A DNA stretch of 30,920 nt from a virus, in the IMG/VR virus record IMGVR_UViG_3300045988_121797; one strand, written 5' to 3'. Position numbers and translations under genes: made by a program. Below are positions 18,632-30,920 of the stretch, in pieces. The first letter of the stretch is position 1. Each line of letters opens with the position of its first letter. A model generated the notes under the pieces. It ran no database searches and had not been told where the DNA came from. It saw nothing but the letters and a program-made list of their open reading frames with translations.

Positions 18632-20335
18632 ATGGAAATTAGGCAAAAACTTTCTCTCGATTTTGGCAGAGATACGCACCCTATTACGGTATTTGCAAAG
18701 CAGAACGACACAAAAACCCGTTTTCTTGAAATTACCCCGCTTAATTGCGGGCAGGCTTACGCTATCGAGGACGGCGTAACGCCCCGCTTGCAGCTTACCA
18801 AAGCTGACGGGCATACCGTACTCAATGACGCAACCGTAGAAAACGGCGTTATCGTTGTCGAACTGACACCGCAGGCACTCGCAGCCGCAGGCGTGGCGGT
18901 TGCCGAAATCGGACTTTATAAGGGCGAGGCTCTCTTGAGCTCGCAAATTTTCTATATTGATGTGGAGCGGGCGGCTTTTGATAAAGACGCACCCGCAAGC
19001 TCCGACGAGTTTAACGCTCTTACCGCTGCTCTTGCGGAGGTTAATACCGTAGCAGAGAGAGCGGCTACTATTGCCTCGGAAATTGCAAACGAGGCAGCAG
19101 ACAACGCCAACGGCGCAGCCGAGGGCGCGGAAAAGGTTAATATTTCAGCGGTGCAGACCGAAACGGGCGCGACTATCAGCGTAACCGACAGAGAGGGTAC
19201 TGTAACCACCGTACATATTGACACGCTTACAGCGGTTAATACCTGGGAGGATATTAAAAACGCCGTCCGCCTCGGACTCGGTGCAAAACTATTTCCCGTT
19301 GGTTACGAGTTTACAACCGAGGACGCTACTACGGGAGCGGTTATTACCTGGGTTGTACGCGACCACGACAAGCACGCAGCGGCAAACGGTAAGCTCGCTC
19401 ACAGTATGACGCTCGAGGCAAAGTATGTATACAGCAACAGCGCGGGCACCTACTTAACCCTCGTATTTGACGCATACGAGGCACTTTACTACGCAGCCGA
19501 GGAAATCCCCGCAGGCACTTATAATTTTACCTGGAATTATGCTACGGGCAGTATGGTAAACGGTACCTATCAATTTACATTGACAAAAGCGGTACCCGCA
19601 GGCGGGCAAATTGTGCTCGGTACTAACTCGAGCTCTACCGCAATTACGGGCTGCAAGATTGCGACTTACGCTACCGTGGCGGCTACTGCTGCTATTGAGA
19701 GCGGTATTGTTGTTACAGAGGGCTCGGAGGGTACAAGCCTCGGCACCATTGCCGCGACATCTGCCACAAGCGAAAACCTTAATTGCGCTCAACGCATTAT
19801 GTGGGGCTCCAACAACTACGCACAGAGCGCGGCTCGTCAATGGCTCAACAGCGACGCAGCGGCGGGCTCCGTGTGGACTCCTACAAACAAATTTGACCGC
19901 GCCCCGTCCTGGGCTACCTCTAAAGCGGGCTTTATGAAAGGCTTACCCGCCGACTTTTTGGCAGCGGTACAGCCTGCGGCTATTCCTTGCCGCACTAACT
20001 CCGTATTTGAGGTAAACAGCCTCGACGGTACCGAGTATACCGTAAACACGGTATACACCTTAAACGATATGTTTTTTATGCTCTCTCGTCCCGAAATATA
20101 CGGCTCTTGGGACAGCTCCTCCATTAAAGACGGCGAGCTGTTGGAGTATTACGAGGGCTTAACCGATATTGAGCGTATCAAATATGACGCGGCGGGCTCG
20201 GCGCGTAACTGTTGGCTCCGATCCCCTTACCCTGGGTACGCGGGCAGCGAGCGCATTGTGAACACCTCGGGAGCGTTGGGCCACGGCAGCGCGATTATCG
20301 GTAACGGAGTCGCCCCCGCTTGTATAATCGCATAA
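18632..20335 (+). CDS. DGR target protein 1: BppU_N-like N-terminus, coiled coil, and a C-type-lectin-fold C-terminus carrying VR1
   Basis: 567 aa. The N-terminus resembles the baseplate upper protein Ig-like domain. The C-terminus NCWLRSPYPGYAGSERIVNTSGALGHGSAIIGNGVAPACIIA aligns to TR. Confidence 0.85.
   Translation: MEIRQKLSLDFGRDTHPITVFAKQNDTKTRFLEITPLNCGQAYAIEDGVTPRLQLTKADGHTVLNDATVENGVIVVELTPQALAAAGVAVAEIGLYKGEALLSSQIFYIDVERAAFDKDAPASSDEFNALTAALAEVNTVAERAATIASEIANEAADNANGAAEGAEKVNISAVQTETGATISVTDREGTVTTVHIDTLTAVNTWEDIKNAVRLGLGAKLFPVGYEFTTEDATTGAVITWVVRDHDKHAAANGKLAHSMTLEAKYVYSNSAGTYLTLVFDAYEALYYAAEEIPAGTYNFTWNYATGSMVNGTYQFTLTKAVPAGGQIVLGTNSSSTAITGCKIATYATVAATAAIESGIVVTEGSEGTSLGTIAATSATSENLNCAQRIMWGSNNYAQSAARQWLNSDAAAGSVWTPTNKFDRAPSWATSKAGFMKGLPADFLAAVQPAAIPCRTNSVFEVNSLDGTEYTVNTVYTLNDMFFMLSRPEIYGSWDSSSIKDGELLEYYEGLTDIERIKYDAAGSARNCWLRSPYPGYAGSERIVNTSGALGHGSAIIGNGVAPACIIA
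20195..20323 (+). repeat. DGR variable region VR1
   Basis: Gap-free 129-nt alignment to TR 20809-20937 with 15 differences. Fourteen are at TR adenines and one is a silent T/A. Confidence 0.9.
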
Positions 20336-20343: not shown

Positions 20344-20361
20344 CCGCCTCGGTAGAGGCGG
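20344..20361 (+). promoter_or_regulatory. GC-rich hairpin downstream of VR1 (candidate DGR target-recognition hairpin/cruciform)
   Basis: ccgcctc-GGTA-gaggcgg: a 7-bp stem with a 4-nt loop, 20 nt after the end of VR/TR homology. Confidence 0.6.
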
Positions 20362-20379: not shown

Positions 20380-20790
20380 ATGAGCGTTAGAAAAGGCGAC
20401 AGAGGCGAGGGCAAGCTGCAAGTGCTTAATAAAGCTCGAGAGCTTAAAAAGTATTCATTAGCAGCACTCAAAAACGAGAAACACTTTCCAAAAAGTACCC
20501 GTTGGCTTTATGCCTCGCCGATTGCTACAGAGGTACGCGAGGCGTGTATTTGCATACGGCACGCTAACTCGGTATATGTAACCAACGCCGAGGAGCACAG
20601 CTACCGCCGTATGGAGCAAGTAAAGGCGCACGCACACCTCGACGCTCTATTAGACCTTATCGACGACGCATACGACGCGGGCTATATTTCGGGTGATAAA
20701 GCGGAGTTTTGGACGGGGTTAATACTCAAGACAGACGACCTATTAAAAGCCTGGATAAAGTCCGACAAAGAAAAATACAAAGATATGTAG
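20380..20790 (+). CDS. avd: DGR accessory variability determinant (Avd-like four-helix-bundle protein)
   Basis: 136 aa, basic and helical, located between VR and TR exactly as in BPP-1. SD aaaggagg lies upstream. Confidence 0.75.
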   Translation: MSVRKGDRGEGKLQVLNKARELKKYSLAALKNEKHFPKSTRWLYASPIATEVREACICIRHANSVYVTNAEEHSYRRMEQVKAHAHLDALLDLIDDAYDAGYISGDKAEFWTGLILKTDDLLKAWIKSDKEKYKDM

Positions 20791-20808
20791 GGCGGTTGCT
20801 ATATTTTC

Positions 20809-20937
20809 GGCTCGGCGCGTAACTGTTGGCTCCGTTCCCCTAACCCTGGGAACGCGAACAACGAGCGCAATGTGAACACCTCGGGAGCGTTGAACAACAA
20901 CAACGCGATTAACGGTAACGGAGTCGCCCCCGATTGT
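20809..20937 (+). repeat. DGR template repeat (TR)
   Basis: Its position is non-coding, 18 nt after the avd stop. It is rich in AAC (aac aac aac aac) and homologous to VR1 and to VR2 (from 20842). Confidence 0.9.
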
Positions 20938-21024: not shown

Positions 21025-22149
21025 TTGCGGGCGACAAAGGTACCTTACGGGGTAGTCCTTTTATATGCGTCCGCCTACTTTATTATGTCATACGAACAAG
21101 TAATATCTTTTGACAACCTCTACAAGGGGTTAAAACAAAGCTGCCGTAATATCCGTTGGAAAGATAGTACCGTAGGCTATGAGGGCAACGCCCTAAAGAA
21201 TACTTACCGCTTACGAGAAAGCCTCTTGAGCGGCAAATACAAAATAGATAGGCACCAACACTTTACCATATACGAGCCGAAACGCCGCGACATTGTGGCG
21301 ACCAGGTTAAAAGACCGACAATTTCAACGCTCGCTATGTGATAACGGACTTTATGAGCAGATAACGAAATCGTTTATAACTGATAATTGCGCCTGCCTGC
21401 GCGGGCGTGGAGTCGATTATACCCTAAACCGTATCACGGCGCATTTACGCCGTTATTATAAAGCTCACGGCTGCGACGGGTGGGTGCTCAAGTGTGATAT
21501 ACACCACTATTTCCCGAGCATACGCCACGACATAGCAAAGGCTGCAATATGTAAGCGGGTTAAAGACGCTCAAATAGCGGCGCACGCCTGCGACATTGTA
21601 GACTCTTTCGGCGGTGATGTTGGTATAGGGCTCGGCTCCCAGGTATCGCAGCTTGTAGCTCTTGCCGTCCTGGACGACCTCGACCACTTTATAAAAGAGC
21701 GGCTCCGAGTCAAGCACTATATACGATATATGGACGATTTTATACTAATCCACGAGGACAAGGAATTTTTGCAGCATTGCCGCGTGGAGATAGAAAAGCA
21801 AGTAAACGCTATCGGGCTTGAGCTCAACGGCAAAACTACTCTCTATCCTCTCCGCCAGGGCGTAAAAATGTTGCAATGGCGTTTTATCGTTACCGACTCG
21901 GGAGCGATTATACGCAAAATGGGTAAAAAGAAACAAGGCAAGCAACGCCGCAAGCTCAAAAAGCTATACGCTAAAGAGCAGAGCGGCGACTATGCGCCAG
22001 GGACGGCTCACGAGTCCCTCGTTTCTTGGCTTGCAAACGCTGCCCGAGGAGATACCTACCACGAGCGGCGGAAAATGATAAATTTCTATAAAGAATTGGA
22101 GGGCTCTTATCGTGAAAAACAATTACCACAAACGCCTCGCCCAGGTTGA
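21025..22149 (+). CDS. DGR reverse transcriptase
   Basis: Motif C IRYMDDFILIH, the DGR-type IGLGSQVSQ motif, and an N-terminal FDNLYKGLKQS region. TTG at 21025 has SD aaggaggg 5 nt upstream. ATG at 21085 is an alternative. The track start at 20872 lies inside TR. Confidence 0.9.
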   Translation: MRATKVPYGVVLLYASAYFIMSYEQVISFDNLYKGLKQSCRNIRWKDSTVGYEGNALKNTYRLRESLLSGKYKIDRHQHFTIYEPKRRDIVATRLKDRQFQRSLCDNGLYEQITKSFITDNCACLRGRGVDYTLNRITAHLRRYYKAHGCDGWVLKCDIHHYFPSIRHDIAKAAICKRVKDAQIAAHACDIVDSFGGDVGIGLGSQVSQLVALAVLDDLDHFIKERLRVKHYIRYMDDFILIHEDKEFLQHCRVEIEKQVNAIGLELNGKTTLYPLRQGVKMLQWRFIVTDSGAIIRKMGKKKQGKQRRKLKKLYAKEQSGDYAPGTAHESLVSWLANAARGDTYHERRKMINFYKELEGSYREKQLPQTPRPG

Positions 22150-22661: not shown

Positions 22662-22673
22662 GGAGAAAAAGCT

Positions 22674-23277: not shown

Positions 23278-23279
23278 GT

Positions 23280-24272
23280 ATGCAGATTAAAGAAACCATT
23301 TTAACAAATAACCCTTGCTACAAAGCGGGTAAAACTATCGCCGTAAAGGGGCTTATGCTCCATAGCGTAGGCTGCCCGCAGCCGTCCGCGCTCGTTTTCG
23401 TCAATAATTGGAATAAGAGTACATACGACAGAGCGTGCGTACACGCCTTTATCGACGGAAATACGGGCGTTATTTATCAATGCTTGCCGTGGAGCCACAG
23501 AGGGTGGCACGGTGGCGGAGCCTCTAATAATACGCATATCGGCGTTGAGATGTGCGAGCCTGCGTGTATCAAGTATACGAGCGGCTCAAATTTCACTTGC
23601 TCCGATACTGCTACCGCAAAGGCGGTAGTTAAGCGCACCTATGAGGCAGCCGTGGAGCTGTTCGCTTTCCTTTGTAAACAGTACAACCTCGACCCCCTCG
23701 CAGACGGCGTAATTATCAGCCACCGAGAGGGACACGCTCGCGGTATCGCCTCCAACCACGGCGACCCCGAGCACTTGTGGAACGGCTTAAAAATGGGCTA
23801 CACTATGGACGGCTTTAGAAAGGCTGTTGCGGCGGCTATGAAACCCGCCGAGGAAACAAAACCCGCAGCACCCGCCGAGCCTGCAAAGACTCTTTACAGA
23901 GTGCAGACGGGAGCTTTCACAAAGAAAGCTAACGCTACCGCCCTTGCAGAAAAGCTCAAGAAAGCGGGCTTTGATACCTATATCGTGCAGAGCGGCAGCC
24001 TCTACAAGGTGCAAGTAGGAGCCTACAGCGTCAAGGCTAACGCCGACGCTATGGCAAAGAAACTCAAGGCGGCGGGCTTTGATACCTACATTACCACAAA
24101 GAGTGGTACCGCCGTAGCTGCGGACTCACCCGCTAAAAAGTCCGTTGACGAACTCGCGCGCGAGGTTATCGCGGGAAAGTGGGGCAACGGCGCAACTCGT
24201 AAACAAAAGCTCACGGCAGCGGGGTACGACTACTCCGCCGTACAAAAGCGCGTAAACGAGCTGCTTAAATAG
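23280..24272 (+). CDS. Endolysin: N-acetylmuramoyl-L-alanine amidase with two SPOR repeats and a Cpl-7-like wall-binding domain
   Basis: Amidase_2/PGRP-type motifs are HSVGCPQ, WHGGGASNNTHIGVEMCEP and ISHREGH...NHGDPEHLW. SPOR repeats are LYRVQTGAFTKKANATALAEKLKKAGFDTYI and LYKVQVGAYSVKANADAMAKKLKAAGFDTYI. The CW_7 region is SVDELAREVIAGKWGNGATRKQKL. Confidence 0.9.
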   Translation: MQIKETILTNNPCYKAGKTIAVKGLMLHSVGCPQPSALVFVNNWNKSTYDRACVHAFIDGNTGVIYQCLPWSHRGWHGGGASNNTHIGVEMCEPACIKYTSGSNFTCSDTATAKAVVKRTYEAAVELFAFLCKQYNLDPLADGVIISHREGHARGIASNHGDPEHLWNGLKMGYTMDGFRKAVAAAMKPAEETKPAAPAEPAKTLYRVQTGAFTKKANATALAEKLKKAGFDTYIVQSGSLYKVQVGAYSVKANADAMAKKLKAAGFDTYITTKSGTAVAADSPAKKSVDELAREVIAGKWGNGATRKQKLTAAGYDYSAVQKRVNELLK

Positions 24273-24300
24273 TCCTCCTTAAATCCATATAAAGAAAGGG

Positions 24301-24336
24301 CGGCGGGTTAGCGGGAAACTGCGCCCGCCGTCTTTT
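24301..24336 (+). terminator. Candidate rho-independent terminator after the lysis cassette
   Basis: cggcggg (24301-24307) pairs with cccgccg (24324-24330) and is followed by tcttttc. Confidence 0.55.
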
Positions 24337-24359
24337 CGCATTTAGAGAGGAGTTTTACA

Positions 24360-24887
24360 ATGTCAAAGAGTAATGTAACCTTTATAAACACGAGCAAAGA
24401 GGTTAAAAAAACAATGGTAGGGCTATCCAAAACCGCCCTCCGAGCCTCGGGAAAAGTCGTGCGTAAATATCTGCGCGCAGCGGTACCCGTCCGCTCAAAG
24501 CGTTTCAAAAACCATATAGGCTCTTGGGCTATGGTAGATTATAAAACGGGACAGCCGCAGCTACAAATCGGCTTTTACTCCTGGCAGAAAGTAAGAAAAA
24601 AGGGCAAGCTACCCTCACACGCGAGCCCGCATTGGGTGGAGTTTGGCGTAAACTCTCATACGATAGCGGTTAAAAATGCGAAAATGCTTGCTTATGATAA
24701 CACGGTATACGGCAGAGCCGTACAGCACCCAGGCACACGGGCTACAAATGTACTCCGCGACACGGTGCAAAACAATATAGCAGAAATCCGAGCGGCACAA
24801 GAGGAATACCTCGCCGAGCTCTCGAAAACTCTTGAGGAGGCGGGAGCTAAAGTCTACACGGGCGAGGACACCGACGAGGACGACTAA
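24360..24887 (+). CDS. HK97 gp10-like neck / tail-completion family protein, displaced from the structural module
   Basis: 175 aa. LRASGKVVRKYLRAAVPVRSKRFKNHIGS...HWVEFGVNSH...HPGTRATNVLRDTV fits the gp10-family pattern. Confidence 0.55.
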   Translation: MSKSNVTFINTSKEVKKTMVGLSKTALRASGKVVRKYLRAAVPVRSKRFKNHIGSWAMVDYKTGQPQLQIGFYSWQKVRKKGKLPSHASPHWVEFGVNSHTIAVKNAKMLAYDNTVYGRAVQHPGTRATNVLRDTVQNNIAEIRAAQEEYLAELSKTLEEAGAKVYTGEDTDEDD

Positions 24888-24891
24888 AAGC

Positions 24892-24927
24892 AAAGGCAGG
24901 GGCTTTAATTAGCCTCTGCCTTTTTCT
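24892..24927. terminator. Bidirectional terminator between convergent genes
   Basis: aaaggcaggggc (24892-24903) pairs with gcctctgccttt (24912-24923) as a 12-bp stem with one G-T wobble. The loop is 8 nt, and the flanking A/T runs suit both strands. Confidence 0.6.
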
Positions 24928-24929
24928 GT

Positions 24930-25235
24930 TTATCCGTTATAATTTCCGTAGCACTTACTGCACCGTCGCAAGCCTTTTTTGATTGCCTCTTTTTCTTTCA
25001 TTTCTACGCAATCAACACTACGACTCATAGCGCACATTTGGTCGTTATGATATACTTTGCTGCCTTTGTTTACAAATACAATATCGTAATCATAGTGCGG
25101 CTCCTTTTTTGCGGCGGGTGCCTGCGGTACCGCCTGCGCCTTATTGCGGTTGCAAAGCCAAATAATAAAATAGACAATGCCTACGGGGTAAAAGATAATA
25201 AGTAATACTTTTTGCCAGGTTTTTAATTTTTTCAT
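24930..25235 (-). CDS. Membrane-anchored small Cys-containing protein; the only minus-strand gene
   Basis: 101 aa from MKKLKTWQKVLLIIFYPVGIVYFIIWLC (TM segment). The C-terminus is KVYHNDQMC...RRCSKCYGNY. The track extension to 25286 runs through a terminator hairpin. Confidence 0.6.
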   Translation of the reverse strand: MKKLKTWQKVLLIIFYPVGIVYFIIWLCNRNKAQAVPQAPAAKKEPHYDYDIVFVNKGSKVYHNDQMCAMSRSVDCVEMKEKEAIKKGLRRCSKCYGNYNG

Positions 25236-25253
25236 AGCGACAACTCCCATAAT

Positions 25254-25287
25254 AAAAAAGTGCGTGCAACTCGCCGCTGCACGCACT
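25254..25287 (-). terminator. Intrinsic-terminator-like hairpin on the minus strand, 18 nt upstream of the minus-strand gene's ATG (possible attenuator)
   Basis: agtgcgtgca (25259-25268) pairs with tgcacgcact (25278-25287) as a 10-bp stem. On the minus strand it is followed by a U run (plus-strand A run 25254-25259). Confidence 0.5.
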
Positions 25288-25309
25288 AAAAACGCAAGCT
25301 CCGAATTGC

Positions 25310-25422
25310 TACCACACTAATTCTATGTTTTACGCTATAAGACGCAAAAACGAGCCCGCGTTTTTACCGAGGTAAAAACAGCGCACTTATAGCATAAAAC
25401 ACCATATTAAATTAGTGTGGTA
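25310..25422. repeat. Long imperfect palindrome (about 113 nt) with two mutually exclusive inner hairpins
   Basis: Outer arms: taccacactaatt (25310-25322) with aattagtgtggta (25410-25422). Next arms: gttttacgctataag (25327-25341) with cttatagcataaaac (25386-25400), 14/15 paired. Inner hairpin 1: aaaaacg (25346-25352) with cgttttt (25359-25365). Inner hairpin 2: tttttacc (25361-25368) with ggtaaaaa (25371-25378). The two inner hairpins share the T5 tract. Confidence 0.8.
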
Positions 25423-25427
25423 TCTAT

Positions 25428-25436
25428 ATTATAACA
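25428..25436 (-). promoter_or_regulatory. Candidate extended -10 promoter (TGTTATAAT) on the minus strand
   Basis: The reverse complement of attataaca reads tgttataat. There is no good -35. It would give a leader of about 185 nt for the minus-strand gene. Confidence 0.3.
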
Positions 25437-25464
25437 TACTGTCGTCGAAAAAGAAATATTTTCC

Positions 25465-25486
25465 GCGAAAAAGTGCAAAAAATTTT
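25465..25486 (+). repeat. Left terminal inverted repeat of the IS30-family element
   Basis: gcgaaaaagtgcaaaaaatttt is the exact reverse complement of 27255-27276. Confidence 0.85.
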
Positions 25487-25497
25487 TAAGAAAAGTA

Positions 25498-25526
25498 TTG
25501 ACATACTGCAAGCAGTATGATATAAT
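25498..25526 (+). promoter_or_regulatory. Consensus sigma70 promoter TTGACA-N17-TATAAT with a palindromic operator in the spacer
   Basis: -35 at 25498-25503 and -10 at 25521-25526. The 8-bp inverted repeat catactgc-aa-gcagtatg spans 25502-25519. Confidence 0.75.
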
Positions 25527-25552
25527 AATTACAGAAAGGAGGTAGAAAGCCT

Positions 25553-25690
25553 ATGGAAAATCAAGGCATAGAAAAAGCCTTGCAAGACCTGGCAAAAGCG
25601 TTAAGCGGTAACGACACGGTGCAACGAGTCAAAGTTACGATAACACTTGAAAAGCCAAAGCCGAGCAAGGCAAAACCCGAAAGCAAGTAG
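25553..25690 (+). CDS. Mini-ORF, 45 aa (hypothetical); below the ORF-track length cutoff
   Basis: SD aaggagg at 25536-25542 with the ATG 10 nt downstream. MENQGIEKALQDLAKALSGNDTVQRVKVTITLEKPKPSKAKPESK. Confidence 0.5.
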   Translation: MENQGIEKALQDLAKALSGNDTVQRVKVTITLEKPKPSKAKPESK

Positions 25691-25778
25691 CTTTCAAAGG
25701 CAGGGACGGGGCGAAAGCCCCTCCCGTAAGTCCTATTATAGCATAGATATAATAAAATTGCAATAGGAGGCGTTTTAT

Positions 25779-25946
25779 ATGGTTATAGAAAAAAACGGCA
25801 AGGCGTACACCGTAACCGAGCACCGCGACAAATGGACGGTATCGGCGGAAAGCGGTAAACTCTCGGTTGCTTTTGATGTTTCAAAAGAGCTATGCCCCAC
25901 AGCCGACGCGCTGCGAGTGTATGTAAACAATAATAGTATTTTTTGA
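25779..25946 (+). CDS. Mini-ORF, 55 aa (hypothetical); below the ORF-track length cutoff
   Basis: SD aggagg with the ATG at 25779. MVIEKNGKAYTVTEHRDKWTVSAESGKLSVAFDVSKELCPTADALRVYVNNNSIF. Confidence 0.5.
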   Translation: MVIEKNGKAYTVTEHRDKWTVSAESGKLSVAFDVSKELCPTADALRVYVNNNSIF

Positions 25947-25959
25947 GGAGGGCTGACCT

Positions 25960-26148
25960 ATGGCGGACAAGCGGAAAACGAAAACCTCTACCGAGGTAAA
26001 AACAAGATACAATCAAAAGACTTATGATGTAATAGCGGTTAGAGTCCCTAAAGAAATGGCAGAGGCTTTCAAGGCGAAATGTACCGCCGAGGATATACCG
26101 CAAGCCCAAATTATAAAGCGGGCTATTGAGGAATTTTTGCAGCAGTAA
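25960..26148 (+). CDS. Ribbon-helix-helix (CopG/Arc-like) DNA-binding protein
   Basis: 62 aa. YDVIAVRVPKEMAEAFKAKCTAEDIPQAQIIKRAIEEFL fits the RHH strand-helix-helix pattern. Confidence 0.7.
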   Translation: MADKRKTKTSTEVKTRYNQKTYDVIAVRVPKEMAEAFKAKCTAEDIPQAQIIKRAIEEFLQQ

Positions 26149-26150
26149 CC

Positions 26151-26187
26151 GAGAGGGAGCGTAACGGCTCCCTCTCTTTGTCTTTTT
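26151..26187 (+). terminator. Strong rho-independent terminator
   Basis: gagagggagc-gtaacg-gctccctctc forms a perfect 10-bp stem, followed by tttgtcttttt. Confidence 0.8.
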
Positions 26188-26213
26188 ATATGATAAAACG
26201 GAGTGATTTTATT

Positions 26214-27251
26214 ATGGCATACAAACATTTAACCTTTAACGACAGATTAAAAATTGAGGCTTGGCAAAAGGTAGGTACCTCCCCTCGAGTAATGGCTGAA
26301 AAGCTCGGCGTACATATCAGCACTATTTATAGAGAGCTCAAGCGCGGACAGTATGAGCACCTTAATTCCGATTATACCACCGAGCAGAGATACAGCCCCG
26401 ATATTGCCGAGGAGAAAAACCAGGCTAACCTACGCGCTAAAGGTGCGCCGCTTAAAATCGGCTCCGACCACGAGTACGCGCAGTATATCGAGTATAAAAT
26501 AAGAGTAGAGAAATACTCTCCCCGCGCCGTCCTGGGCGAAATCAAACGCCAGGGCGTAGAGTTTAGTACGAGCATATCGGCTCCGACTCTGTACCGCTAT
26601 ATCGAGCAGGGCGTTTTCCTCACTATCACAAACGACAATTTACCTGTTAAGAGAAATAAGAGCACCCGCAAATATAAGAAAGTGAGAGCGGCTCGCGCCT
26701 CCAAAGGTGAGAGCATAGAAAAACGCCCCGCAGAGATTGCGGAGCGTAACACTTTCGGACATTGGGAAATGGATTGCGTAGAGGGCAAGAAAGGCACTAA
26801 AAAAACTATGCTCGTATTGACCGAGCGTTATACCCGCTACGAGATTATCCGCATTATGAAAGACCACACCGCCGCAAGCGTCGTAAAAGCCCTTAACGGT
26901 ATCGAGCGGGCATACGGCGCAGACTTTTATAAAATCTTTCAAAGTATCACCATAGACAACGGCTCCGAGTTTTCCGATTATGAGGGACTCGAGCAGAGCT
27001 GCCGCCGCGTCGGCACCCGTACAAAGGTATATTACTGCCACCCGTACAGCTCATACGAGCGCGGCTCAAATGAAAATCAAAATAAAATGATACGCCGCCA
27101 CTACCCGAAAGGCGTTAGCTTTGAGCGGGTAACGCCTGCCGACACACGCAGGCTTGAAAAGTGGATAAACAATTATCCGAGAGGGATTTTTAACTATTTT
27201 ACCTCCGCAGACCTCTACGAGGCGTGCGTAAATAGCCTTTTATCTGCCTAA
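26214..27251 (+). CDS. IS30-family DDE transposase
   Basis: 345 aa. N-terminal HTH LTFNDRLKIEAWQKVGTSPRVMAEKLGVHISTIYRELKRG. Catalytic core HWEMDCVEG...ITIDNGSEFSDY...SYERGSNENQNKMIRR. Confidence 0.9.
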   Translation: MAYKHLTFNDRLKIEAWQKVGTSPRVMAEKLGVHISTIYRELKRGQYEHLNSDYTTEQRYSPDIAEEKNQANLRAKGAPLKIGSDHEYAQYIEYKIRVEKYSPRAVLGEIKRQGVEFSTSISAPTLYRYIEQGVFLTITNDNLPVKRNKSTRKYKKVRAARASKGESIEKRPAEIAERNTFGHWEMDCVEGKKGTKKTMLVLTERYTRYEIIRIMKDHTAASVVKALNGIERAYGADFYKIFQSITIDNGSEFSDYEGLEQSCRRVGTRTKVYYCHPYSSYERGSNENQNKMIRRHYPKGVSFERVTPADTRRLEKWINNYPRGIFNYFTSADLYEACVNSLLSA

Positions 27252-27254
27252 ATT

Positions 27255-27276
27255 AAAATTTTTTGCACTTTTTCGC
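27255..27276 (-). repeat. Right terminal inverted repeat of the IS30-family element
   Basis: aaaattttttgcactttttcgc is the reverse complement of 25465-25486, 22/22. Confidence 0.85.
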
Positions 27277-27285
27277 ATTTACCTC

Positions 27286-27314
27286 TTGACTTTTCAAATA
27301 AAAAGTTTTAGAAT
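27286..27314 (+). promoter_or_regulatory. Candidate promoter TTGACT-N17-TAGAAT
   Basis: -35 at 27286-27291 and -10 at 27309-27314. It lies just outside the IS right end and points toward repeat copy B and the HTH/methylase genes. Confidence 0.5.
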
Positions 27315-27355
27315 AAGTGCGAAAGGTTTTTTAAGACCTAACGCACTTATTTTTT
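27312..27355 (+). terminator. Rho-independent terminator overlapping the -10 of the candidate promoter
   Basis: aataagtgcg (27312-27321) pairs with cgcacttatt (27342-27351). An inner aggt/acct pair extends the structure, and a T run follows. Confidence 0.65.
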
Positions 27356-27357
27356 AT

Positions 27358-27433
27358 GGCTTTTGCTTATAACGAGGATAGAGCAACGCAGAGGTGCGAC
27401 TCGAGCGCGTTATGAGATTTTAGCATAAGGGAA
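27358..27433 (+). repeat. 76-bp element, copy B (partner of 998-1073)
   Basis: 74/76 identical to copy A; mismatches are at 27385 and 27414. Confidence 0.9.
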
Positions 27434-27434
27434 T

Positions 27435-27466
27435 AAGAAAGCGGAGGGCGCGCCCTCCGCTTTCTT
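27435..27466. repeat. Perfect 32-bp palindrome (16-bp arms)
   Basis: aagaaagcggagggcg|cgccctccgctttctt, immediately after repeat copy B and 38 nt upstream of the HTH ORF. Confidence 0.9.
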
Positions 27467-27504
27467 GCTCTCACCTACAGAGAAAAGAAAGGAGTATAGC
27501 GCGT

Positions 27505-27756
27505 ATGACTTGCCGATACCTCACCTACGAGGACAGAAAGAGCATTGAGGCTCTTTATGCAGCAGGCGTAAGCCTCGCCGACATTGCCTCCGAGCTCGGA
27601 GTACACCTCGCCACTATTTATAGAGAAATGACGCGAGGCGGAACGGGTGAGCTCGACGGTAACGGGCGTAGCGGCTATAGTGCCGAGCTTGCACAAAAGA
27701 CCGTACAAGACAGTATCAAACGCCGAGGGCACCGAAAACCCGCCACGGCGCAGTAA
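27505..27756 (+). CDS. Standalone IS30-type HTH protein (transposase N-terminal domain only)
   Basis: 83 aa. MTCRYLTYEDRKSIEALYAAGVSLADIASELGVHLATIYREMTRGG aligns with residues 1-45 of the transposase at 26214 (about 21/45 identical). There is no DDE core. Confidence 0.7.
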   Translation: MTCRYLTYEDRKSIEALYAAGVSLADIASELGVHLATIYREMTRGGTGELDGNGRSGYSAELAQKTVQDSIKRRGHRKPATAQ

Positions 27757-27789
27757 AACAAAATAAAAATAAAACGGAGTGATTTTATT

Positions 27790-28716
27790 ATGATTAAACT
27801 TTTAATAGGCGGCTCCCCTTGCACAAAGTGGAGCGTAGCAAGAACGAAAGACAGAGAAACCACAGCAAGCGGGATAGGTTGGGAATTGTTTGTAAATTAT
27901 CTTATTGCAAAGGCGAGGTTTAAGCCCGACCTTTTCTTATATGAAAACAACGAGTCCGCAGCCCCCGAAATTCAAGAGCAAATTAGCTACGAGCTCGGAG
28001 TAGAACTTGCACACATTAACAGCGGGCTATTATCTGCACAAAGCCGAGAGCGGTTTTATGCGTTTAATTGGGAAGCGGAAATGCCAAAGGAAAAAGGGCT
28101 TGTATTAAAAGATATTATACTGCCCGCCGAAGCGGTACCGAGCAAATATTGGTACACCGACAAGCCGTACACATTACTCGATACCGATAAGGTAGTATGT
28201 GCCTCGTTAGATATTAAGGCTATGGATATTATAAAGCGGGTACACAATATCAATTTCAAATCACCGACGCTTACTTGCGACGGAAAAGGCGGACACAGAG
28301 TAAAGAAAATCCTACAAGACGGGAAACCGAGAAAACTAATGCCTATCGAATACGAGAGGTTGCAAACGCTCCCCGACAACTACACTAAAGCTATAAGCGA
28401 TAGTCAGCGGTACAACACAATCGGCAACGGTTGGACGGCGGATATTATTATACATATTCTTTCCTATGCTCTCTCGGGCGTTGATAAAAACGAAAAAATA
28501 ATTGTTTTATCAATGTATGACGGTATAGCTACGGGCCGCTACTGCCTGGATAAAATGGGATTTACAAATGTTGAGTATTACGCTATCGAAATTGACGAAC
28601 ACGCAAAGAAAGTAGCTAACGACAATTACCCCGATATTATGCAGTACGGCGACGCTTTCCAAATGAGGGATAACGCCTTTAATATAAACGGTTTGCTTTC
28701 GGAGGTGATTATATGA
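27790..28716 (+). CDS. DNA (cytosine-5) methyltransferase with circularly permuted motif order
   Basis: Motifs: IV LLIGGSPCTKWS (aa 4-15), VI FLYENN (49-54), VIII SAQSRERF (82-89), IX RKLMPIEYERLQTLPDNYT (181-199), X IGNGWT (211-216), I VLSMYDGIATG (239-249), II YYAIEID (263-269), III YGDAF (286-290). Confidence 0.8.
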   Translation: MIKLLIGGSPCTKWSVARTKDRETTASGIGWELFVNYLIAKARFKPDLFLYENNESAAPEIQEQISYELGVELAHINSGLLSAQSRERFYAFNWEAEMPKEKGLVLKDIILPAEAVPSKYWYTDKPYTLLDTDKVVCASLDIKAMDIIKRVHNINFKSPTLTCDGKGGHRVKKILQDGKPRKLMPIEYERLQTLPDNYTKAISDSQRYNTIGNGWTADIIIHILSYALSGVDKNEKIIVLSMYDGIATGRYCLDKMGFTNVEYYAIEIDEHAKKVANDNYPDIMQYGDAFQMRDNAFNINGLLSEVII

Positions 28717-29162
28717 AAGCTGTTAAGTGCCCGCAATGCGGACACGAATTTACACCCGAGCGGGCAGCAGTTAAGACGGGAGCTTGGACTACCGAGGAGG
28801 ACGAGCTGCTGTTACACGGGTACCAAAAGGAGCGTAAGACTATCGCGCAGCTTTCCGAGGAGCTTAACCGCACCCAGGACGCAACGCGCAACCGTCTATA
28901 TTTGCTCCGTGGCGGAGGCAAGCCTAAAGGCGTAAACGCAAGCGTGCAGCTCTCGGCGAAAGAATTTGACGAAATGAGAGCGGCTCGCACCGAGGTTAAG
29001 AACGCCCGAAAGGTTGTAGAGCAGGCGAAAGCCACCGAGCGCGAGCTCTCCGCCTTTTATGCCCTGGGTAAACAGTTACTCAATGCAAGGCAAAACAAGC
29101 GCGCTATAGCCCCGCTTTTTGCGGAGCTGCAAAAGTTAGTAGATACATACGAAAATTTTTAG
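28713..29162 (+). CDS. Zinc-ribbon plus Myb/SANT-like DNA-binding protein (putative regulator)
   Basis: 149 aa. CPQCGHEF, then WTTEEDELLLHGYQKERKTIAQLSEELNRTQDATRNRLYLL. The start overlaps the methylase stop (ATGA). Confidence 0.45.
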   Translation: MKAVKCPQCGHEFTPERAAVKTGAWTTEEDELLLHGYQKERKTIAQLSEELNRTQDATRNRLYLLRGGGKPKGVNASVQLSAKEFDEMRAARTEVKNARKVVEQAKATERELSAFYALGKQLLNARQNKRAIAPLFAELQKLVDTYENF

Positions 29163-29175
29163 GAGGTAAAACCTT

Positions 29176-29865
29176 ATGAATAGCAGCATTTTAACCGCTA
29201 TTGAGTCCCTATGCGACGATATAGCAACCAACACCAACCCAGAGGAAAACAAGAAAAGAGCCGAGGCGGTTGTTTCTCTTGCCTTTGCGGGCATTTTTAC
29301 ACCCGCAGAATATGACGACGAATACGAGGACGAAAGCTCCGAGGGTGAAGCGGCACCCGTTGCAGATGTGAGCAAGGTACCGCAGGCGGGCGAGCGTTTT
29401 ACCCGTGGCGGTATTGAGTTTGTCGCTCTCGGTATGGAGCAAGGCGGCGTACTTGCCGTAGCTGCAAAACGACTCGAGGACGAAATGGCATACGACGAGG
29501 ACGGCTCCAACGATTGGCGCAAATCCTCTCTCCGTAAATACCTCAACGAGGAGTTTGTAAAGAATTTCGATAAAGGCGACCTCCTCCCGTTTGTTTCCGA
29601 CCTCACCTCCGACGACGGTATGACCGACTACGGCACCTCCGAGGACTTTGTGGCGTTGCTTTCGGACAACCTTTACCGCAAGTACCGTAAGTTTATGCCT
29701 AAATATGATACCTGGGTATGGACTATTACTCCCTGGAGCTGCCTCCCTGGGAACGCGAGCAGCGAGCGCTATGTGAACACCTCGGGAGCGTTGAACGGCA
29801 ACTACGCGATTTACGGTTACGGAGTCGCCCCCGCTTGTATTTTTAATCCCGAAATCTTTAAGTAA
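29176..29865 (+). CDS. DGR target protein 2 (remote): acidic N-terminus plus a C-type-lectin-like C-terminal domain carrying VR2
   Basis: 229 aa. WRKSSLRKYLNEEF, then WSCLPGNASSERYVNTSGALNGNYAIYGYGVAPACIF aligned to TR. No signal peptide or TM segment is seen. Confidence 0.8.
   Translation: MNSSILTAIESLCDDIATNTNPEENKKRAEAVVSLAFAGIFTPAEYDDEYEDESSEGEAAPVADVSKVPQAGERFTRGGIEFVALGMEQGGVLAVAAKRLEDEMAYDEDGSNDWRKSSLRKYLNEEFVKNFDKGDLLPFVSDLTSDDGMTDYGTSEDFVALLSDNLYRKYRKFMPKYDTWVWTITPWSCLPGNASSERYVNTSGALNGNYAIYGYGVAPACIFNPEIFK
29743..29838 (+). repeat. DGR variable region VR2
   Basis: Gap-free 96-nt alignment to TR 20842-20937 with 11 differences, all at TR adenines. Confidence 0.88.
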
Positions 29866-29868
29866 TCT

Positions 29869-29882
29869 GCGCCGATAGGCGC
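29869..29882 (+). promoter_or_regulatory. GC-rich hairpin downstream of VR2 (candidate DGR target-recognition hairpin)
   Basis: gcgcc-GATA-ggcgc: a 5-bp stem plus one T-G wobble, with a 4-nt loop. It starts 30 nt after the end of VR2. Confidence 0.5.
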
Positions 29883-29896
29883 GTATGGAGGCTTAT

Positions 29897-30097
29897 ATGG
29901 GATATAGGAAAGTATCAGCAGCGGAGCAAATTTATTACATTATTAAATATGCGGTGCGGCGGGCGGTAAAACGCCTCCGCTCCCGCCTGCGCCATTGGCT
30001 AAAGCGCGGCAAAGGCTGCCGCCATTGTTGCCTATGGTGTAAATATTTCGAGCAATGCAGCTCGGAGGAGGTAGACAATGAAACTAAAACAAATTGA
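29897..30097 (+). CDS. Hypothetical basic Cys-rich small protein
   Basis: MGYRKVSAAEQ...GCRHCCLWCKYFEQC. SD ggagg lies 5 nt upstream of the ATG at 29897; the track start at 29885 is the alternative. Confidence 0.35.
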   Translation: MGYRKVSAAEQIYYIIKYAVRRAVKRLRSRLRHWLKRGKGCRHCCLWCKYFEQCSSEEVDNETKTN

Positions 30098-30677
30098 GGC
30101 GATATTAAAAGCCGAAAAAACAATAATCGTTTCCGAAACGCCCTCTTGTCAATGGCTCGGAAACGGTGCGGCATTTTACCCCGTATACAATTTGCCAAAA
30201 CTGACGCAAGACAACATCTTTACTATGTTTGATATTGCGGAGGACAAGCGGGACAAATTCTATTTTGAGGAGCGGGAGCTGCCCTCTTTTATAAATTTCG
30301 AGGACGGCGACGAGTCCGAGGAAATGCTCGACAGAGGCTCTATTGCATTTTACGCGCAAGGTAGAACGCTCGAGCCTCTCAAGACCTCCCAGGGCATAGC
30401 CTTTATAAATACAAGGTACTTAAAACCATTTACAGACTCTCAAGCAGGCTACGAATTGTACGAGCGTACCGACAAGCTCGGCAGACCGTACATTGTAGTA
30501 AAAAGCGGTTTTGTACTACTCGGCGTTATCTCTCCTTATGACCTGGTAAACGAGGGCTTTGTGCAGACTCTCGAGGAGATATTAAACCTATCCAAAGTAA
30601 CGCTCTTTAACAAACAAGAAAAGAGCCGAGCTGCGGACGGTTACAAACAAATCGAGCTCGGCGAGGAGGTGGAGTAA
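30078..30677 (+). CDS. Hypothetical protein
   Basis: 199 aa with SD ggaggagg upstream. I recognise no motif. Confidence 0.5.
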   Translation: MKLKQIEAILKAEKTIIVSETPSCQWLGNGAAFYPVYNLPKLTQDNIFTMFDIAEDKRDKFYFEERELPSFINFEDGDESEEMLDRGSIAFYAQGRTLEPLKTSQGIAFINTRYLKPFTDSQAGYELYERTDKLGRPYIVVKSGFVLLGVISPYDLVNEGFVQTLEEILNLSKVTLFNKQEKSRAADGYKQIELGEEVE

Positions 30678-30755
30678 ATGGAGGAAATTATTATTGCGCT
30701 CATTATCTGCGGCACAATCATTATTTTAGTGCGCGGCAACAATAAAAAGAAATAA
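30678..30755 (+). CDS. Possible 25-aa single-TM peptide
   Basis: MEEIIIALIICGTIIILVRGNNKKK. The ATG directly follows the previous stop, with ggaggtggag upstream. This rests on the ORF alone. Confidence 0.25.
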   Translation: MEEIIIALIICGTIIILVRGNNKKK

Positions 30756-30767
30756 GGAGCGGGCTAT

Positions 30768-30920
30768 ATGGATTTTCAGCAGCTTAACGAGGCTTTAATG
30801 AACGGATAGCCCGTAGAGCATAACGGTATCGTTTATAAATGTGTTTCGGCTATTATCAAGCGAAACAAGAACGGGAAACCCGTATACACCGCAGAGCTCA
30901 CAGATAGAAATAACAACAGC
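30768..30920 (+). pseudogene. Junction-spanning small ORF interrupted by one in-frame TAG (30807-30809)
   Basis: SD aaggag lies 8 nt upstream of the ATG at 30768. MDFQQLNEALMNG-TAG-PVEHNGIVYKCVSAIIKRNKNGKPVYTAELTDRNNNS... stays open to the window end and continues at 56-100. Confidence 0.35.
30866..30920. repeat. Terminal direct repeat, partner of 1-55
   Basis: Exact 55-nt identity with the window start. Confidence 0.95.

Follow-up and report, generated by a model that had tools for sequence, protein, structure and literature searches.

The window, by which we mean the whole 30,920-nucleotide stretch of viral DNA that was analysed, is a complete, circularly assembled 30.9-kb genome of a temperate siphovirus with one DGR. 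This DGR consists of an avd accessory gene (20380..20790, here and throughout on the + strand), a template repeat (TR, 20809..20937, located by sequence alignment), and a reverse transcriptase gene (RT, 21025..22149, with the gene call taken from L059), and reverse transcription that is error-prone at adenines copies the TR into two places, the variable repeats VR1 and VR2. The avd product matches phrog_3206, 'Avd protein of DGR' (E 3.6e-28), and weakly matches the NCBIfam Avd, and the RT matches RVT_1 and phrog_1423 (E 3.4e-104), is intact, and contains the DGR motifs IGLGSQVSQ and YMDD. VR1 (20195..20323) lies at the 3' end of the large target-1 gene (18632..20335), which encodes a 567-aa tail protein with a BppU_N domain (Pfam, E 3.4e-11) and a C-terminal DUF6273 domain (E 2.6e-15; PHROG match phrog_19280), and it uses the full 129 nt of the TR, from which it differs at 15 positions, 14 of them TR adenines. 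VR2 (29743..29838) occupies codons 190-221 of a second gene, target 2 (29176..29865, identified from its ORF and from Pfam and PHROG matches), whose product is a 229-aa acidic DUF6273 protein, and corresponds to only the 3' 96 nt of the TR (20842-20937). Targets 1 and 2 have in common only the VR-encoded segment and one motif. The window holds no TR matches beyond VR1 and VR2, and an Rfam scan across its whole length returned no match.

Megablast of positions 18000-30920 against 50,697 phage records also returned no match, and hence there is no near-identical described phage. The closest relatives in bacterial records are named Acutalibacteraceae or Clostridia, on which grounds identity with the Faecalibacterium prophage CP11 was rejected, and a more distant relative (75%) resides in Ruminococcus intestinalis.

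VR2 as a second DGR target

The alignment of VR2 with the 3' part of the TR is free of gaps and identical at 85 of 96 positions, and all 11 mismatches fall on TR adenines, an outcome with a chance probability of P = 6e-7 given 30 adenines among the 96 positions. A preliminary description of this locus had reported the same alignment, and the codon changes it listed are exactly those present. Its figure of 11 adenine-site differences holds as a count of positions but not as a count of mutagenic events, because the last one (GAT to GCT), where the TR has A at 20933 and VR2 has C, is a fixed VR-versus-TR difference within the IMH-like end. The same C is found in VR1 and, at the DNA level, in the VR2 of 17 of 17 relatives, and residue 220 is an invariant Ala in 82 homologues. 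With this position excluded, the number of VR2 differences attributable to mutagenesis is 10. The 30 adenines in the matching part of the TR yield 16 variable codons, equivalent to about 10^16.5 protein variants.

Two trivial origins of VR2 were considered and rejected: a chance repeat, for which the restriction to A alone has P of about 1e-6, and a copy of VR1, which is at odds with the different substitution patterns and with the lack of the TR 5' 33 nt in VR2. For instance, the TR codon at 20857-20859 is GGC in VR1 and AGC in VR2, and the substitution sets of the two repeats differ, which bears out the earlier proposal of independent homing. VR2 is almost certainly a genuine second target of the same TR, diversified independently of VR1, and it is an active one.

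VR2 also has the cis elements needed by a DGR target, namely homology to the TR 3' end, an IMH-like end, and a covarying hairpin. The GC-rich 3' end of VR2 (29821..29838), defined by three-way alignment of the TR, VR1, and VR2, reads GGAGTCGCCCCCGCTTGT in both VRs and ...CCCCCGATTGT in the TR. The C at 29834 is what sets the VRs apart from the TR, and 15 of the 18 positions, the C included, are invariant among 15 relatives; from this pattern we infer that the element would act as an IMH. The hairpin (29868..29883) has a 6-bp GC-rich stem and a 4-nt loop, GATA, and is positioned 30 nt past the VR, inside the 19-nt gap that precedes the next gene. In 15 relatives, 97.8% of cells are paired and compensatory changes occur in four of the six pairs, as compared with 20-68% paired when the structure is slid by 1-3 columns as a control. 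A hairpin read from the sequence 3' of VR1 (20344..20361) has the form CCGCCTC-GGTA-GAGGCGG, and its stem sequence also occurs 3' of VR2 in relatives L020-L022 and L038, with the loop GATA replacing GGTA. The loops at both VRs fit GNTA.

Natural variation at VR2

Comparison of homologous sequences indicates that natural populations vary at VR2 precisely where the TR codons contain adenine. Mean entropy among 82 homologues reaches 2.34 bits in the 16 A-bearing VR codons, against 0.22 bits in the other 16 and 0.27 bits outside the VR. Eighteen homologues with 97.5% identity or more outside the VR have only 25-69% of the variable residues in common. Similarly, the differences between the VR2 of individual close relatives and the window's TR fall at A sites in 13 of 13 cases in L013, 13 of 16 in L011, and 15 of 18 in L014.

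The preliminary description had named an absence of A-specific variability, together with decay at non-A sites, as the mark of a dead repeat, and the opposite was found. A relic VR, left over from an old duplication or from a single homing event after which diversification ceased, would be in keeping with two observations. One is that VR2 is identical in two near-identical contigs from sister samples, scaffold_929 and scaffold_1104, in which VR1 differs at one non-A site; the other is that no read-level variation was seen in the cultured phages Lelie or CP11 (PMC11792537). The sister-sample identity means that no turnover is evident on that time scale, and is uninformative about VR2 activity. 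Against a relic stand the confinement of hypervariability to A codons across the 82 homologues, with adjoining non-A codons conserved, the intact IMH-like end and hairpin, maintained through compensatory changes, and the intact RT. The relic reading is already contradicted by the population data, and we regard it as extremely improbable.

The target-2 protein

Target 2 is the most acidic protein of the genome (pI 4.31), with no signal peptide and no TM-like segment (maximum Kyte-Doolittle 19-residue score 1.29), in agreement with the earlier portrayal of a 229-aa acidic, soluble product. It matches Pfam DUF6273 (E 4.7e-9) and phrog_9958 (E 1.5e-52), has no PADLOC or NCBIfam match, and has 771 homologues; its top profile match is the 6979-aa protein P0165, which is adhesin-like on inspection by eye. 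An AF2 model built from 47 close homologues reached a pLDDT of 46, which rose to 72 when the alignment was rebuilt with homologues of 43-66% identity from a profile search.

Three parts can be distinguished in the protein. The N-terminal module (aa 1-42; 29176..29301), delimited by the AF2 model and by conservation, consists of two helices, residues 3-18 and 22-41, with block-mean pLDDT of 74-87 over residues 1-40. It is highly conserved in the close lineage, with many invariant columns in aa 1-45, and a similar helical module is found at the C-terminus of more distant homologues; it is probably a docking or oligomerisation module. There follows an acidic linker (aa 43-68; 29302..29379) with a net charge of -9, which is disordered in the model (pLDDT <50 for residues 43-64) and variable in sequence among homologues. 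The remainder (aa 69-229; 29380..29862) is the DUF6273 globular domain, identified by phrog_9958 (aa 69-228), AF2, and Foldseek, with VR2 near its C-terminus and with block-mean pLDDT of 74-93 for most of residues 71-180 and 59 at 101-110. A conserved Cys pair, C189 and C221, flanks VR2, and the codon for C221 is inside the TR-templated sequence.

Foldseek of the model retrieved viral DUF6273 proteins (probability 1.0). Against the PDB there was no match at E <= 0.001, and neither Mtd nor TvpA was found; the best PDB match, above that threshold, was a secreted IgA peptidase. A profile search of PDB sequences gave only noise at E <= 10. The domain called a CLec-type ligand-binding domain in the preliminary description is DUF6273, a DGR-target domain, and its putative CLec fold comes from the literature.

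Genomic setting and the early operon

As stated in the preliminary description, target 2 lies in the early/replication block, 8.9 kb from the TR; the measured distance is 8901 nt, past the lysis genes, an IS30-family transposase gene, and a C5 methylase gene. The IS30-family gene had been taken for an IS element. Independent IS insertion was rejected, as the gene comes last in the prophage and its position is conserved; it encodes the phage's own IS30-type integrase.

Upstream of target 2 lie genes assigned by domain matches to an HTH_38 protein, the C5 DNA methylase, and a Myb-like protein (27505..29162). These genes and target 2 are tightly packed: the methylase and Myb-like ORFs overlap (28713-28716), and only 13 nt lie between the end of the Myb-like ORF and the beginning of target 2. 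A consensus scan identified a promoter-like site, TTGACT-17-TAGAAT (27286..27314, 10 of 12 matches), which straddles the prophage end junction (about 27296-27299); homology to 18 prophages begins at 27296-27301. No convincing terminator was found between 27314 and 30920, and the late operon is closed by strong terminators at 24892 and 26151. Judging from this layout, transcription of the early operon, target 2 included, probably starts from the site at 27286-27314. The early cluster also encodes an exported, TM-anchored SLT transglycosylase.

This placement is not peculiar to the window. In a survey of related phages, suggested earlier, 30 of the 49 related loci examined have the target-2 gene in the interval from the HTH_38 gene, the first of the prophage, to Rep, and in Brigit, Toutatis, and Shimadzu it is found near cro-type regulators, exonuclease/RecT, methylases, and Erf. 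In no lineage examined is the gene in the late or tail module; it is always amid early, replication, or methylase genes.

A published class of small remote targets

Target 2 very probably belongs to a class already in the literature, the small DUF6273 'target 2' proteins encoded by gut phages of Clostridia (Oscillospiraceae, Acutalibacteraceae, and Lachnospiraceae). Phages with a large structural target beside the cassette and a small DUF6273 target far from it have been reported before, and the novelty implied by the preliminary description is therefore not upheld: such second targets are described as 'tgt2' of nd4 and nd12 (PMC10743442), as the 'small DGR target protein' of Lelie and CP11 (PMC11792537), and in Toutatisvirus, where the second target is 17.5 kb from the TR and is a core gene present in 98.8% of genomes (bioRxiv 10.1101/2024.10.15.618418). 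By tblastn, aa 68-228 of target 2 are 29-37% identical to the proteins of nd12, nd4, Toutatis, Lelie, and Brigit (E 1e-6 to 4e-16). These five phages, and also Shimadzu and L032, have two VRs with A-only or A-dominated mismatches, and in all seven, as in the window, the first VR lies in a large structural protein, and the second VR is remote and matches only the 3' part of the TR. The dual-target layout is newly found in FP_Brigit and in the Roseburia phage Shimadzu. No mention of the second VR of Brigit was found in the papers on this class.

The closest parallels are nd12_tgt2 and nd4_tgt2 (Baykov et al. 2023, PMC10743442), which are 34-37% identical to target 2 and, like it, are small (234-297 aa) single DUF6273 globules with the VR at the C-terminal end of the domain, remote from the TR, in genomes with a large structural target beside the cassette. 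The nd12 genome also resembles the window in its plan, with an IS30-family transposase, and in its RT (42% identical). In contrast, the large target of nd4 and nd12 is a 'tentaclin' with an N-terminal VR domain, whereas that of the window is a tail protein with BppU_N, its VR being C-terminal, and nd12_tgt2 has an N-terminal DUF3310 where the window protein has the two-helix module and acidic linker. Target 2 does not show the tentaclin traits (PMC10743442): neither Pfam nor the model reveals an Ig-like domain in it, and its VR domain is C-terminal.

The small targets of the Faecalibacterium phages (Toutatis gp24, Lelie orf58, CP11, and FP_Brigit gp06) are likewise small DUF6273 proteins of about 205-215 aa, 29-35% identical to target 2, with the VR at the domain's C-terminus and the gene tens of kb from the TR, amid early genes. 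Population variation has been reported at both VRs of CP11 (PMC11792537; bioRxiv 10.1101/2024.10.15.618418). Unlike the window, Toutatis, Lelie, CP11, and Brigit are myoviruses that infect Faecalibacterium and encode serine or tyrosine integrases, and their proteins lack the VR-flanking Cys pair and start directly with the globular domain and end in a short helix, whereas the window protein has an N-terminal module. Shimadzu, also a myovirus but with a Lachnospiraceae host, encodes a 209-aa DUF6273 protein (orf43, E 8.9e-13) whose VR has 15 of 15 mismatches at A; this VR is 13.9 kb away from the TR, and the genes on either side encode a DNA methyltransferase and the Erf recombinase. The Shimadzu protein orf43 has no tblastn match to target 2 at 1e-5.

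To our knowledge, the only experimentally characterised phage DGR target is Mtd of BPP-1, a virion receptor-binding protein. In Mtd, the VR is at the C-terminal end of the ligand-binding domain and is subject to A-mutagenesis from a TR, with an IMH and a downstream hairpin as cis elements (PMC3240598), and target 2 has the same C-terminal VR, A-mutagenesis, IMH-like end, and hairpin. Mtd is a 381-aa protein in which a beta-prism and a beta-sandwich fix the trimer to the tail fibre, and its gene is beside the cassette in the tail module. None of these features (beta-prism and beta-sandwich, trimer attachment, cassette-adjacent gene) is found in target 2, modelled as helices and a linker ahead of the globule, and neither profile search nor Foldseek finds any likeness to Mtd. 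A different precedent comes from bacterial chromosomes. Cyanobacterial (PMC7517822) and multicellular-bacterial (PMC10907252) DGR targets are reported as cytoplasmic proteins fused to signalling or conflict-system domains, and are proposed to be intracellular variable sensors or binders, a precedent for non-surface targets. They are chromosomal genes with kinase, STAND, or protease partners, whereas the target of the window is a phage early gene.

Function of target 2

Three papers on the small-target class favour a virion receptor-binding role (PMC10743442, PMC11792537, bioRxiv 10.1101/2024.10.15.618418), and in the first and last of these it is the preferred hypothesis. Target 2 would then be an Mtd-like receptor-binding protein or adhesin, made in the infected cell and docked on the tail or capsid through its helical module. 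It would equip the particle with a second, independently diversified specificity, directed at a bacterial receptor or at gut mucus or immune components. We consider this a substantial possibility, though short of probable. The tail protein and target 2 display nearly the same variable peptide because one TR feeds both, and the two proteins have a DGR target domain in common. The helical module is lineage-dependent, being N-terminal, C-terminal, or replaced, as expected if its docking partner were lineage-specific. The DUF6273 fold is extracellular elsewhere, as in the adhesin-like protein and the secreted IgA peptidase matched above, and the conserved cysteines flanking the VR could form a C189-C221 disulfide fit for extracellular life, although the C221 codon is itself templated by the TR. 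Arguing against a virion role are the position of the gene outside the late and tail modules in every lineage examined, the strong terminators that set target 2 apart from the late operon, and the lack of sequence or structure matches to Mtd or TvpA. Moreover, searches of target 2 and of 149 family representatives turned up no Ig, beta-prism, collagen, or fibre domain, and homologues are repeatedly fused to domains of cytoplasmic type.

In a Pfam census of the 149 representatives, the only fused partners were Lar_restr_allev, XRE HTH_3, DUF4406, DUF7768, YopX, MazG, and Zn-ribbon, with no Ig, fibre, collagen, or baseplate domain among them, and the nd12 homologue adds a fusion to DUF3310, a domain of the SaV / T7 gp1.7 type (PMC8306868, PMC9339283). 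The fusion partners of the family are of cytoplasmic early-gene types. It may be that the fused representatives are not DGR targets themselves, and some could have arisen from gene calls that joined adjacent early genes.

Target 2 might also be a soluble factor with an extracellular role, released by lysis or escaping from lysogens through vesicles or leakage. It could then serve as a decoy, as a receptor blocker, shielding progeny or keeping competitors out, or as a binder of host mucus or IgA. Such a role would suit a small, acidic, soluble, and potentially abundant protein that has no anchoring domain and whose best PDB match is a secreted IgA peptidase. It would also suit the presence of the exported transglycosylase in the same early cluster and the report of a related tentaclin in the extracellular-vesicle proteome of Faecalibacterium duncaniae. 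Target 2 has no signal peptide, however, a freely diffusing product offers a weak form of the link between genotype and phenotype that is needed to select DGR libraries, and the HTH, Lar, and nucleotide-metabolism fusions argue for intracellular action. We judge an extracellular role improbable.

The reading that we favour, at about an even chance, is that target 2 is a soluble, cytoplasmic binding protein that is not part of the virion. The conserved early-operon position and the fusions to cytoplasmic domains lend some new support to the intracellular-binder alternative raised earlier, and target 2 has no virion-docking domain, its model consisting, apart from the globule, of two helices and a disordered acidic linker with no beta-prism or Ig anchor. 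A weakness of this reading is that it leans in part on gene position and consensus promoter matches, which do not measure expression. On the favoured, non-virion reading, target 2 would be made from the early operon, probably from a promoter that is complete only in the circular genome, and would be co-transcribed with the DNA methylase ahead of Rep and the late regulator. The protein would act as a soluble, non-virion binding protein, with the two-helix module and acidic linker presenting a hypervariable binding surface of up to about 10^16 variants to a ligand that is presumably variable and within the infected cell, such that each phage genome would test its own target-2 variant on entry.

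A more specific and tentative proposal, which we think rather unlikely, is that target 2 is a DGR-diversified intracellular 'phage antibody', a cytoplasmic hypervariable binder made immediately on genome circularisation. It would neutralise or sense a variable host component, such as a polymorphic defence or restriction factor, with an effector or docking function supplied by the helical module or, in relatives where a Lar, DUF3310, or HTH module takes its place, by that module.

Significance

We know of no natural system of targeted protein hypermutation in prokaryotes other than DGRs, and what is understood of phage DGRs concerns almost exclusively the switching of tropism through tail fibres. 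The present locus is a further well-supported, active case in which one DGR template serves two unrelated proteins, which on its own is confirmatory. Beyond this, the second target is a small soluble protein amid early genes across at least eight phage lineages, and among its relatives are fusions to domains for restriction alleviation, DNA binding, and nucleotide metabolism. If target 2 is intracellular, phage DGRs would also diversify host-takeover or counter-defence functions, the interpretation of gut DGR ecology would change, and the protein would offer a natural scaffold for libraries of intracellular binders. The 'phage antibody', if real, would be the first non-structural protein known as a phage DGR target, and would represent a new form of counter-defence by pre-emptive generation of a repertoire. 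A related prophage (locus L019), whose target-2 homologue is 75% identical, is present in the cultured Ruminococcus intestinalis NSJ-71, and the Faecalibacterium phage Lelie is inducible.

A second, remote copy of the template repeat

The template repeat (TR, 20809-20937) shares only its 3' 96 nt with VR2, the variable repeat at codons 190-221 of target 2. TR 20842-20937 and VR2 29743-29838 align without gaps and are identical at 85 of 96 positions, with all 11 mismatches falling on adenines of the TR copy; as 30 of the 96 positions are A, the probability of such confinement is 6e-7. The alignment returned exactly the codon changes listed in the preliminary description, and the A-confined mismatches bear out its call of VR2 as a DGR target. 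The sole further TR copy within the window is VR1 (20195-20323), in the 567-aa tail protein designated target 1 (18632..20335), which pairs with the longer stretch 20809-20937 and has 14 of its 15 mismatches at A. Substitutions at codons common to VR1 and VR2 differ, which rules out VR2 as a copy of VR1 and agrees with the earlier proposal that the two were hit independently. One difference must be set apart. TR 20933 is A, but C occupies this position in both VRs of the window and in every one of the 17 VR2 copies from relatives that were compared as DNA; in the protein, Ala is invariant at residue 220 of target 2 among 82 homologues. Thus, while all 11 differences do lie at TR adenines, the one in the GC-rich end is a fixed VR-versus-TR difference rather than a mutagenic one, like the IMH and IMH* that distinguish VR from TR in BPP-1. 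The only non-A mismatch of VR1, at 20221 (A in VR1, T in TR), is polymorphic, with T in a sister-sample contig.

To judge from the sequence, the machinery and cis elements of the DGR are complete in the window. The module, on the + strand, comprises avd (20380-20790; PHROG 'Avd protein of DGR', E 3.6e-28), TR, and the RT gene (21025-22149; phrog_1423, E 3.4e-104; motifs IGLGSQVSQ and YMDD). Both VRs end 3' in GGAGTCGCCCCCGCTTGT, and they remain alike past the end of TR homology, where TR is unlike them. On the 3' side of each lies a GC-rich hairpin whose loop has 4 nt, at 20344-20361 after VR1 (CCGCCTC-GGTA-GAGGCGG) and at 29868-29883 after VR2 (6-bp stem, loop GATA). Across 15 related loci, 97.8% of the alignment cells of the VR2 hairpin are paired, with compensatory changes in 4 of 6 pairs, versus just 20-68% pairing when the structure is slid by 1-3 columns. 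The VR2 hairpin agrees with the target-recognition hairpin reported for BPP-1.

Natural diversification of VR2

Of the 771 homologues recovered in a protein search with target 2, many are 88-96% identical, every one in a 90% cluster of its own. In the 82 homologues that align gap-free at 229 aa, mean entropy is 2.34 bits at the 16 VR2 codons whose first or second position is an adenine in TR, compared with 0.22 bits at the remaining 16 VR2 codons and 0.27 bits outside VR2. Eighteen homologues at least 97.5% identical outside VR2 have just 25-69% of the variable residues in common. When VR2 copies of close relatives are set against the window TR, 13 of 13 (L013), 13 of 16 (L011) and 15 of 18 (L014) differences are at A sites. 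The entropy of the A codons and these A-site differences are thus the opposite of a dead VR, lacking A-specific variability and decaying at non-A sites, which the preliminary description had set against its target call. VR2 is, on this comparative evidence, diversified in nature and the target active. Two contigs from sister samples of the source study (scaffold_929 of ENA ERZ28575582, which is the window, and scaffold_1104) are 99.97-99.99% identical over the stretches compared and have identical VR2s, so the evidence for activity is a comparison across populations and not observed turnover; that VR2 is a relic nevertheless seems very improbable. The coding potential of the TR segment is computed at about 10^16.5 protein variants.

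A known class of small, distant targets

A tblastn search with target 2 as query gave homologues in nd12, nd4, FP_Toutatis, Lelie and FP_Brigit; each of these phages encodes a DGR RT and has two VRs whose mismatches are A-only or A-dominated. The first VR lies in a large structural protein adjoining the cassette, and the second closes the DUF6273 domain of a small protein distant from TR. The same layout was found in a goat-gut MAG locus and in Roseburia phage Shimadzu, whose orf43 is flanked by a methyltransferase and Erf; the second VR is 3'-anchored and truncated, as in the window, in all seven other phages examined. The small proteins of nd4 and nd12, named tgt2, were modelled as one C-lec-like globule bearing a VR hairpin, and an Mtd-like function was proposed (Baykov et al. 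2023, PMC10743442). The study of the small target protein of Lelie and CP11 documented variation in both of the VRs across 37 genomes and regarded the function as unclear (PMC11792537), and the second Toutatisvirus target lies 17.5 kb from TR and is core in 98.8% of 173 genomes, of which 68% have the DGR (bioRxiv 10.1101/2024.10.15.618418). The two-target architecture is therefore widespread and already published, and the unusualness claimed for a remote second target has been overtaken by these three reports. As a further case of a known class the window is confirmatory as it stands, and it frames a testable, potentially important question about what target 2 does.

The bacterial genome records that carry the closest relatives bear the names Acutalibacteraceae or Clostridia; Ruminococcus intestinalis and other members of the Oscillospiraceae and Lachnospiraceae harbour more distant relatives of the phage. 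Some relatives have two neighbouring small DUF6273 target genes (L008, 8942-9628 and 10001-10669; also L009, L010, L029 and L037), separated in L008-L010 by a 372-nt non-coding gap. Each has a diversified VR-like end and its own hairpin, suggesting DGRs with three targets.

Genome organization and integration

An exact 55-nt direct repeat (1-55 and 30866-30920) marks the window as a circularly assembled, evidently complete genome of 30,865 bp. All modules are on the + strand: early genes (a TM-anchored SLT transglycosylase, a rolling-circle-type Rep, dUTPase and an ArpU/sigma-like regulator); packaging and head (HNH, terminase, portal, protease, capsid); tail (tape measure, Dit, Tal, a tail protein, and target 1 with BppU_N and DUF6273); the DGR; lysis (holin, endolysin); an IS30-family DDE transposase (26214-27251; NCBIfam NF033563, 230 bits); and a second early stretch of an HTH_38 protein, a C5 methylase, a Myb-like protein, target 2 and two small ORFs, which runs on across the circle into the SLT and Rep genes. 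In 18 related prophage loci (among L008-L027 and L041) homology to the window begins at 27296-27301, some 45 nt past the transposase stop, placing the prophage end at about 27296-27299 and making the transposase the last prophage gene. The left 3-kb flanks of all 18 are mutually dissimilar, and those of L008 and L010, the two with gene calls inspected, hold bacterial genes. The conserved junction and unrelated flanks indicate that what had been described as an IS element between TR and target 2 is the phage's own integrase; integration appears to proceed by IS30-type transposition of low site specificity rather than by a tyrosine or serine integrase. GTCAA occurs about 25-33 nt from the junction in many flanks.

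A promoter-like site, TTGACT-17-TAGAAT (27286-27314), straddles this junction, with its -35 element from the transposase end and its -10 element from the other prophage end. We infer that the two elements of this predicted promoter are joined only when the genome is circular, as happens at IS30-type circle junctions, such that circularization would switch on the early operon of HTH_38, methylase, Myb-like protein and target 2. Target 2 is the fourth gene 3' of the site, and packing is tight: the methylase ORF overlaps that of the Myb-like protein, whose stop is 13 nt from the target 2 start, and the next gene follows the target 2 stop after 19 nt. No convincing terminator was found between genes of this operon; the late operon ends at strong terminators, located at 24892 and 26151.

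The function of target 2

Target 2 (29176..29865) is, as described earlier, small, acidic and free of TM-like segments: it has 229 aa, the lowest pI of the genome (4.31) and no TM-like stretch in a hydropathy scan. An AlphaFold2 model from a diverse alignment (43-96% identity; pLDDT 72, pTM 0.61) predicts helices at residues 3-18 and 22-41 (block-mean pLDDT 74-87 over 1-40), a disordered acidic linker (43-64) and a globule from about residue 69 (block-mean pLDDT 74-93 over most of 71-180), with low confidence in the VR2 region. Targets 1 and 2 have in common only the VR-encoded peptide and the motif N-[DN]-[WY]-x-x-S-x-x-R-x-[YW]-L-N.

There is, in our judgement, roughly an even chance that target 2 is a non-virion, early-expressed soluble binder, a reading that draws on gene position, architecture and fusions. 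The gene lies between HTH_38, the first prophage gene, and Rep in 30 of 49 related loci examined, an order that holds even at Rep identities of 36-41%. The small target of Brigit follows cro-type regulators and precedes exonuclease/RecT, that of Toutatis is flanked by methylases and the replication initiator and lies 5' of the antiterminator Q gene, and that of Shimadzu lies between methylase and Erf. Pfam and the model revealed no Ig-like, beta-prism, collagen or fibre domain. A profile search over 1.84 billion representative proteins gave 3130 relatives, and nearly all of the best 150 are 160-310 aa; when 149 of these were scanned with Pfam, the only partner domains were Lar_restr_allev (two proteins, e.g. 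P0239, residues 2-60), XRE-type HTH_3 (P0258), DUF4406 (P0250), DUF7768 (P0287), YopX, MazG and Zn-ribbon. The tgt2 of nd12 additionally carries DUF3310 (E 2.5e-16), a domain known from T7 gp1.7 and from SaV, an early and toxic protein of a lactococcal phage (PMC8306868, PMC9339283). All are domains of cytoplasmic early-gene types. The proposal of a non-structural role gains circumstantial support, the evidence pointing more towards it than towards a virion receptor binder. Gene position is not expression data, however, and relatives with fused domains are not necessarily DGR targets. A virion adhesin or receptor binder, the literature's guess for small target proteins, is possible if somewhat doubtful. 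Several points speak against the non-virion reading: Mtd, to our knowledge the one characterised phage DGR target, binds a receptor; the same TR feeds a tail protein, target 1; two conserved cysteines flank VR2; and the fold is shared by an adhesin-like protein of 6979 aa and probably by a secreted IgA peptidase. Release of target 2 as an extracellular soluble factor seems improbable.

The family is built in modules. In target 2 the short helical module, which an acidic linker joins to the globule, is N-terminal; in other lineages it is C-terminal, and its place can also be taken by Lar, XRE-HTH, DUF3310, DUF4406, DUF7768 or Zn-ribbon-like domains (P0239, P0258, P0250, P0287; L003 31285-32178; L033-L053). 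The top profile match, the giant YDG-repeat adhesin-like P0165 (6979 aa), matches the N-terminal half of the DUF6273-like domain 22 times; by eye, the complete domain (with WWLRSP...GMRPALWV) is present only at its C-terminal end.

Other features of the genome

A 79-nt direct repeat, 96% identical between 995-1073 and 27355-27433, lies about 70-125 nt upstream of both Rep and the HTH_38 gene and is conserved in both copies in relatives (e.g. L012 12583-12661). It has no Rfam match and probably represents either an early regulatory region that has been duplicated or an origin-related element; a 32-nt palindrome (27435-27466) follows the second copy. Rep itself (1197-1976; Pfam REP_ORF2-G2P, E 4.4e-13; phrog_3584) is a rolling-circle-type replication initiator in a tailed phage. 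A perfect sigma-70 consensus, TTGACA-17-TATAAT with extended TG (25498-25526), faces small ORFs upstream of the transposase and lies opposite a minus-strand 118-aa ORF (24930-25286), a region that is probably the lysogeny/lysis switch. Where the window has small ORFs and the transposase, L009 has an opposite-strand 565-aa RVT_1 protein (5334-7031) between holins and HTH_38, suspected from its size to be a group II intron RT. Finally, a peptidoglycan hydrolase, DNA methylases and a small DGR target recur together among the early genes of three unrelated phages, the hydrolase being SLT in the window (97-756, with an N-terminal transmembrane anchor, RRVITFIICIFLIGAIIGGVTVAAISAF) and a 3D/'cell wall hydrolase' in Toutatis (gp16) and Shimadzu (orf40), an unusual location for a cell-wall enzyme.
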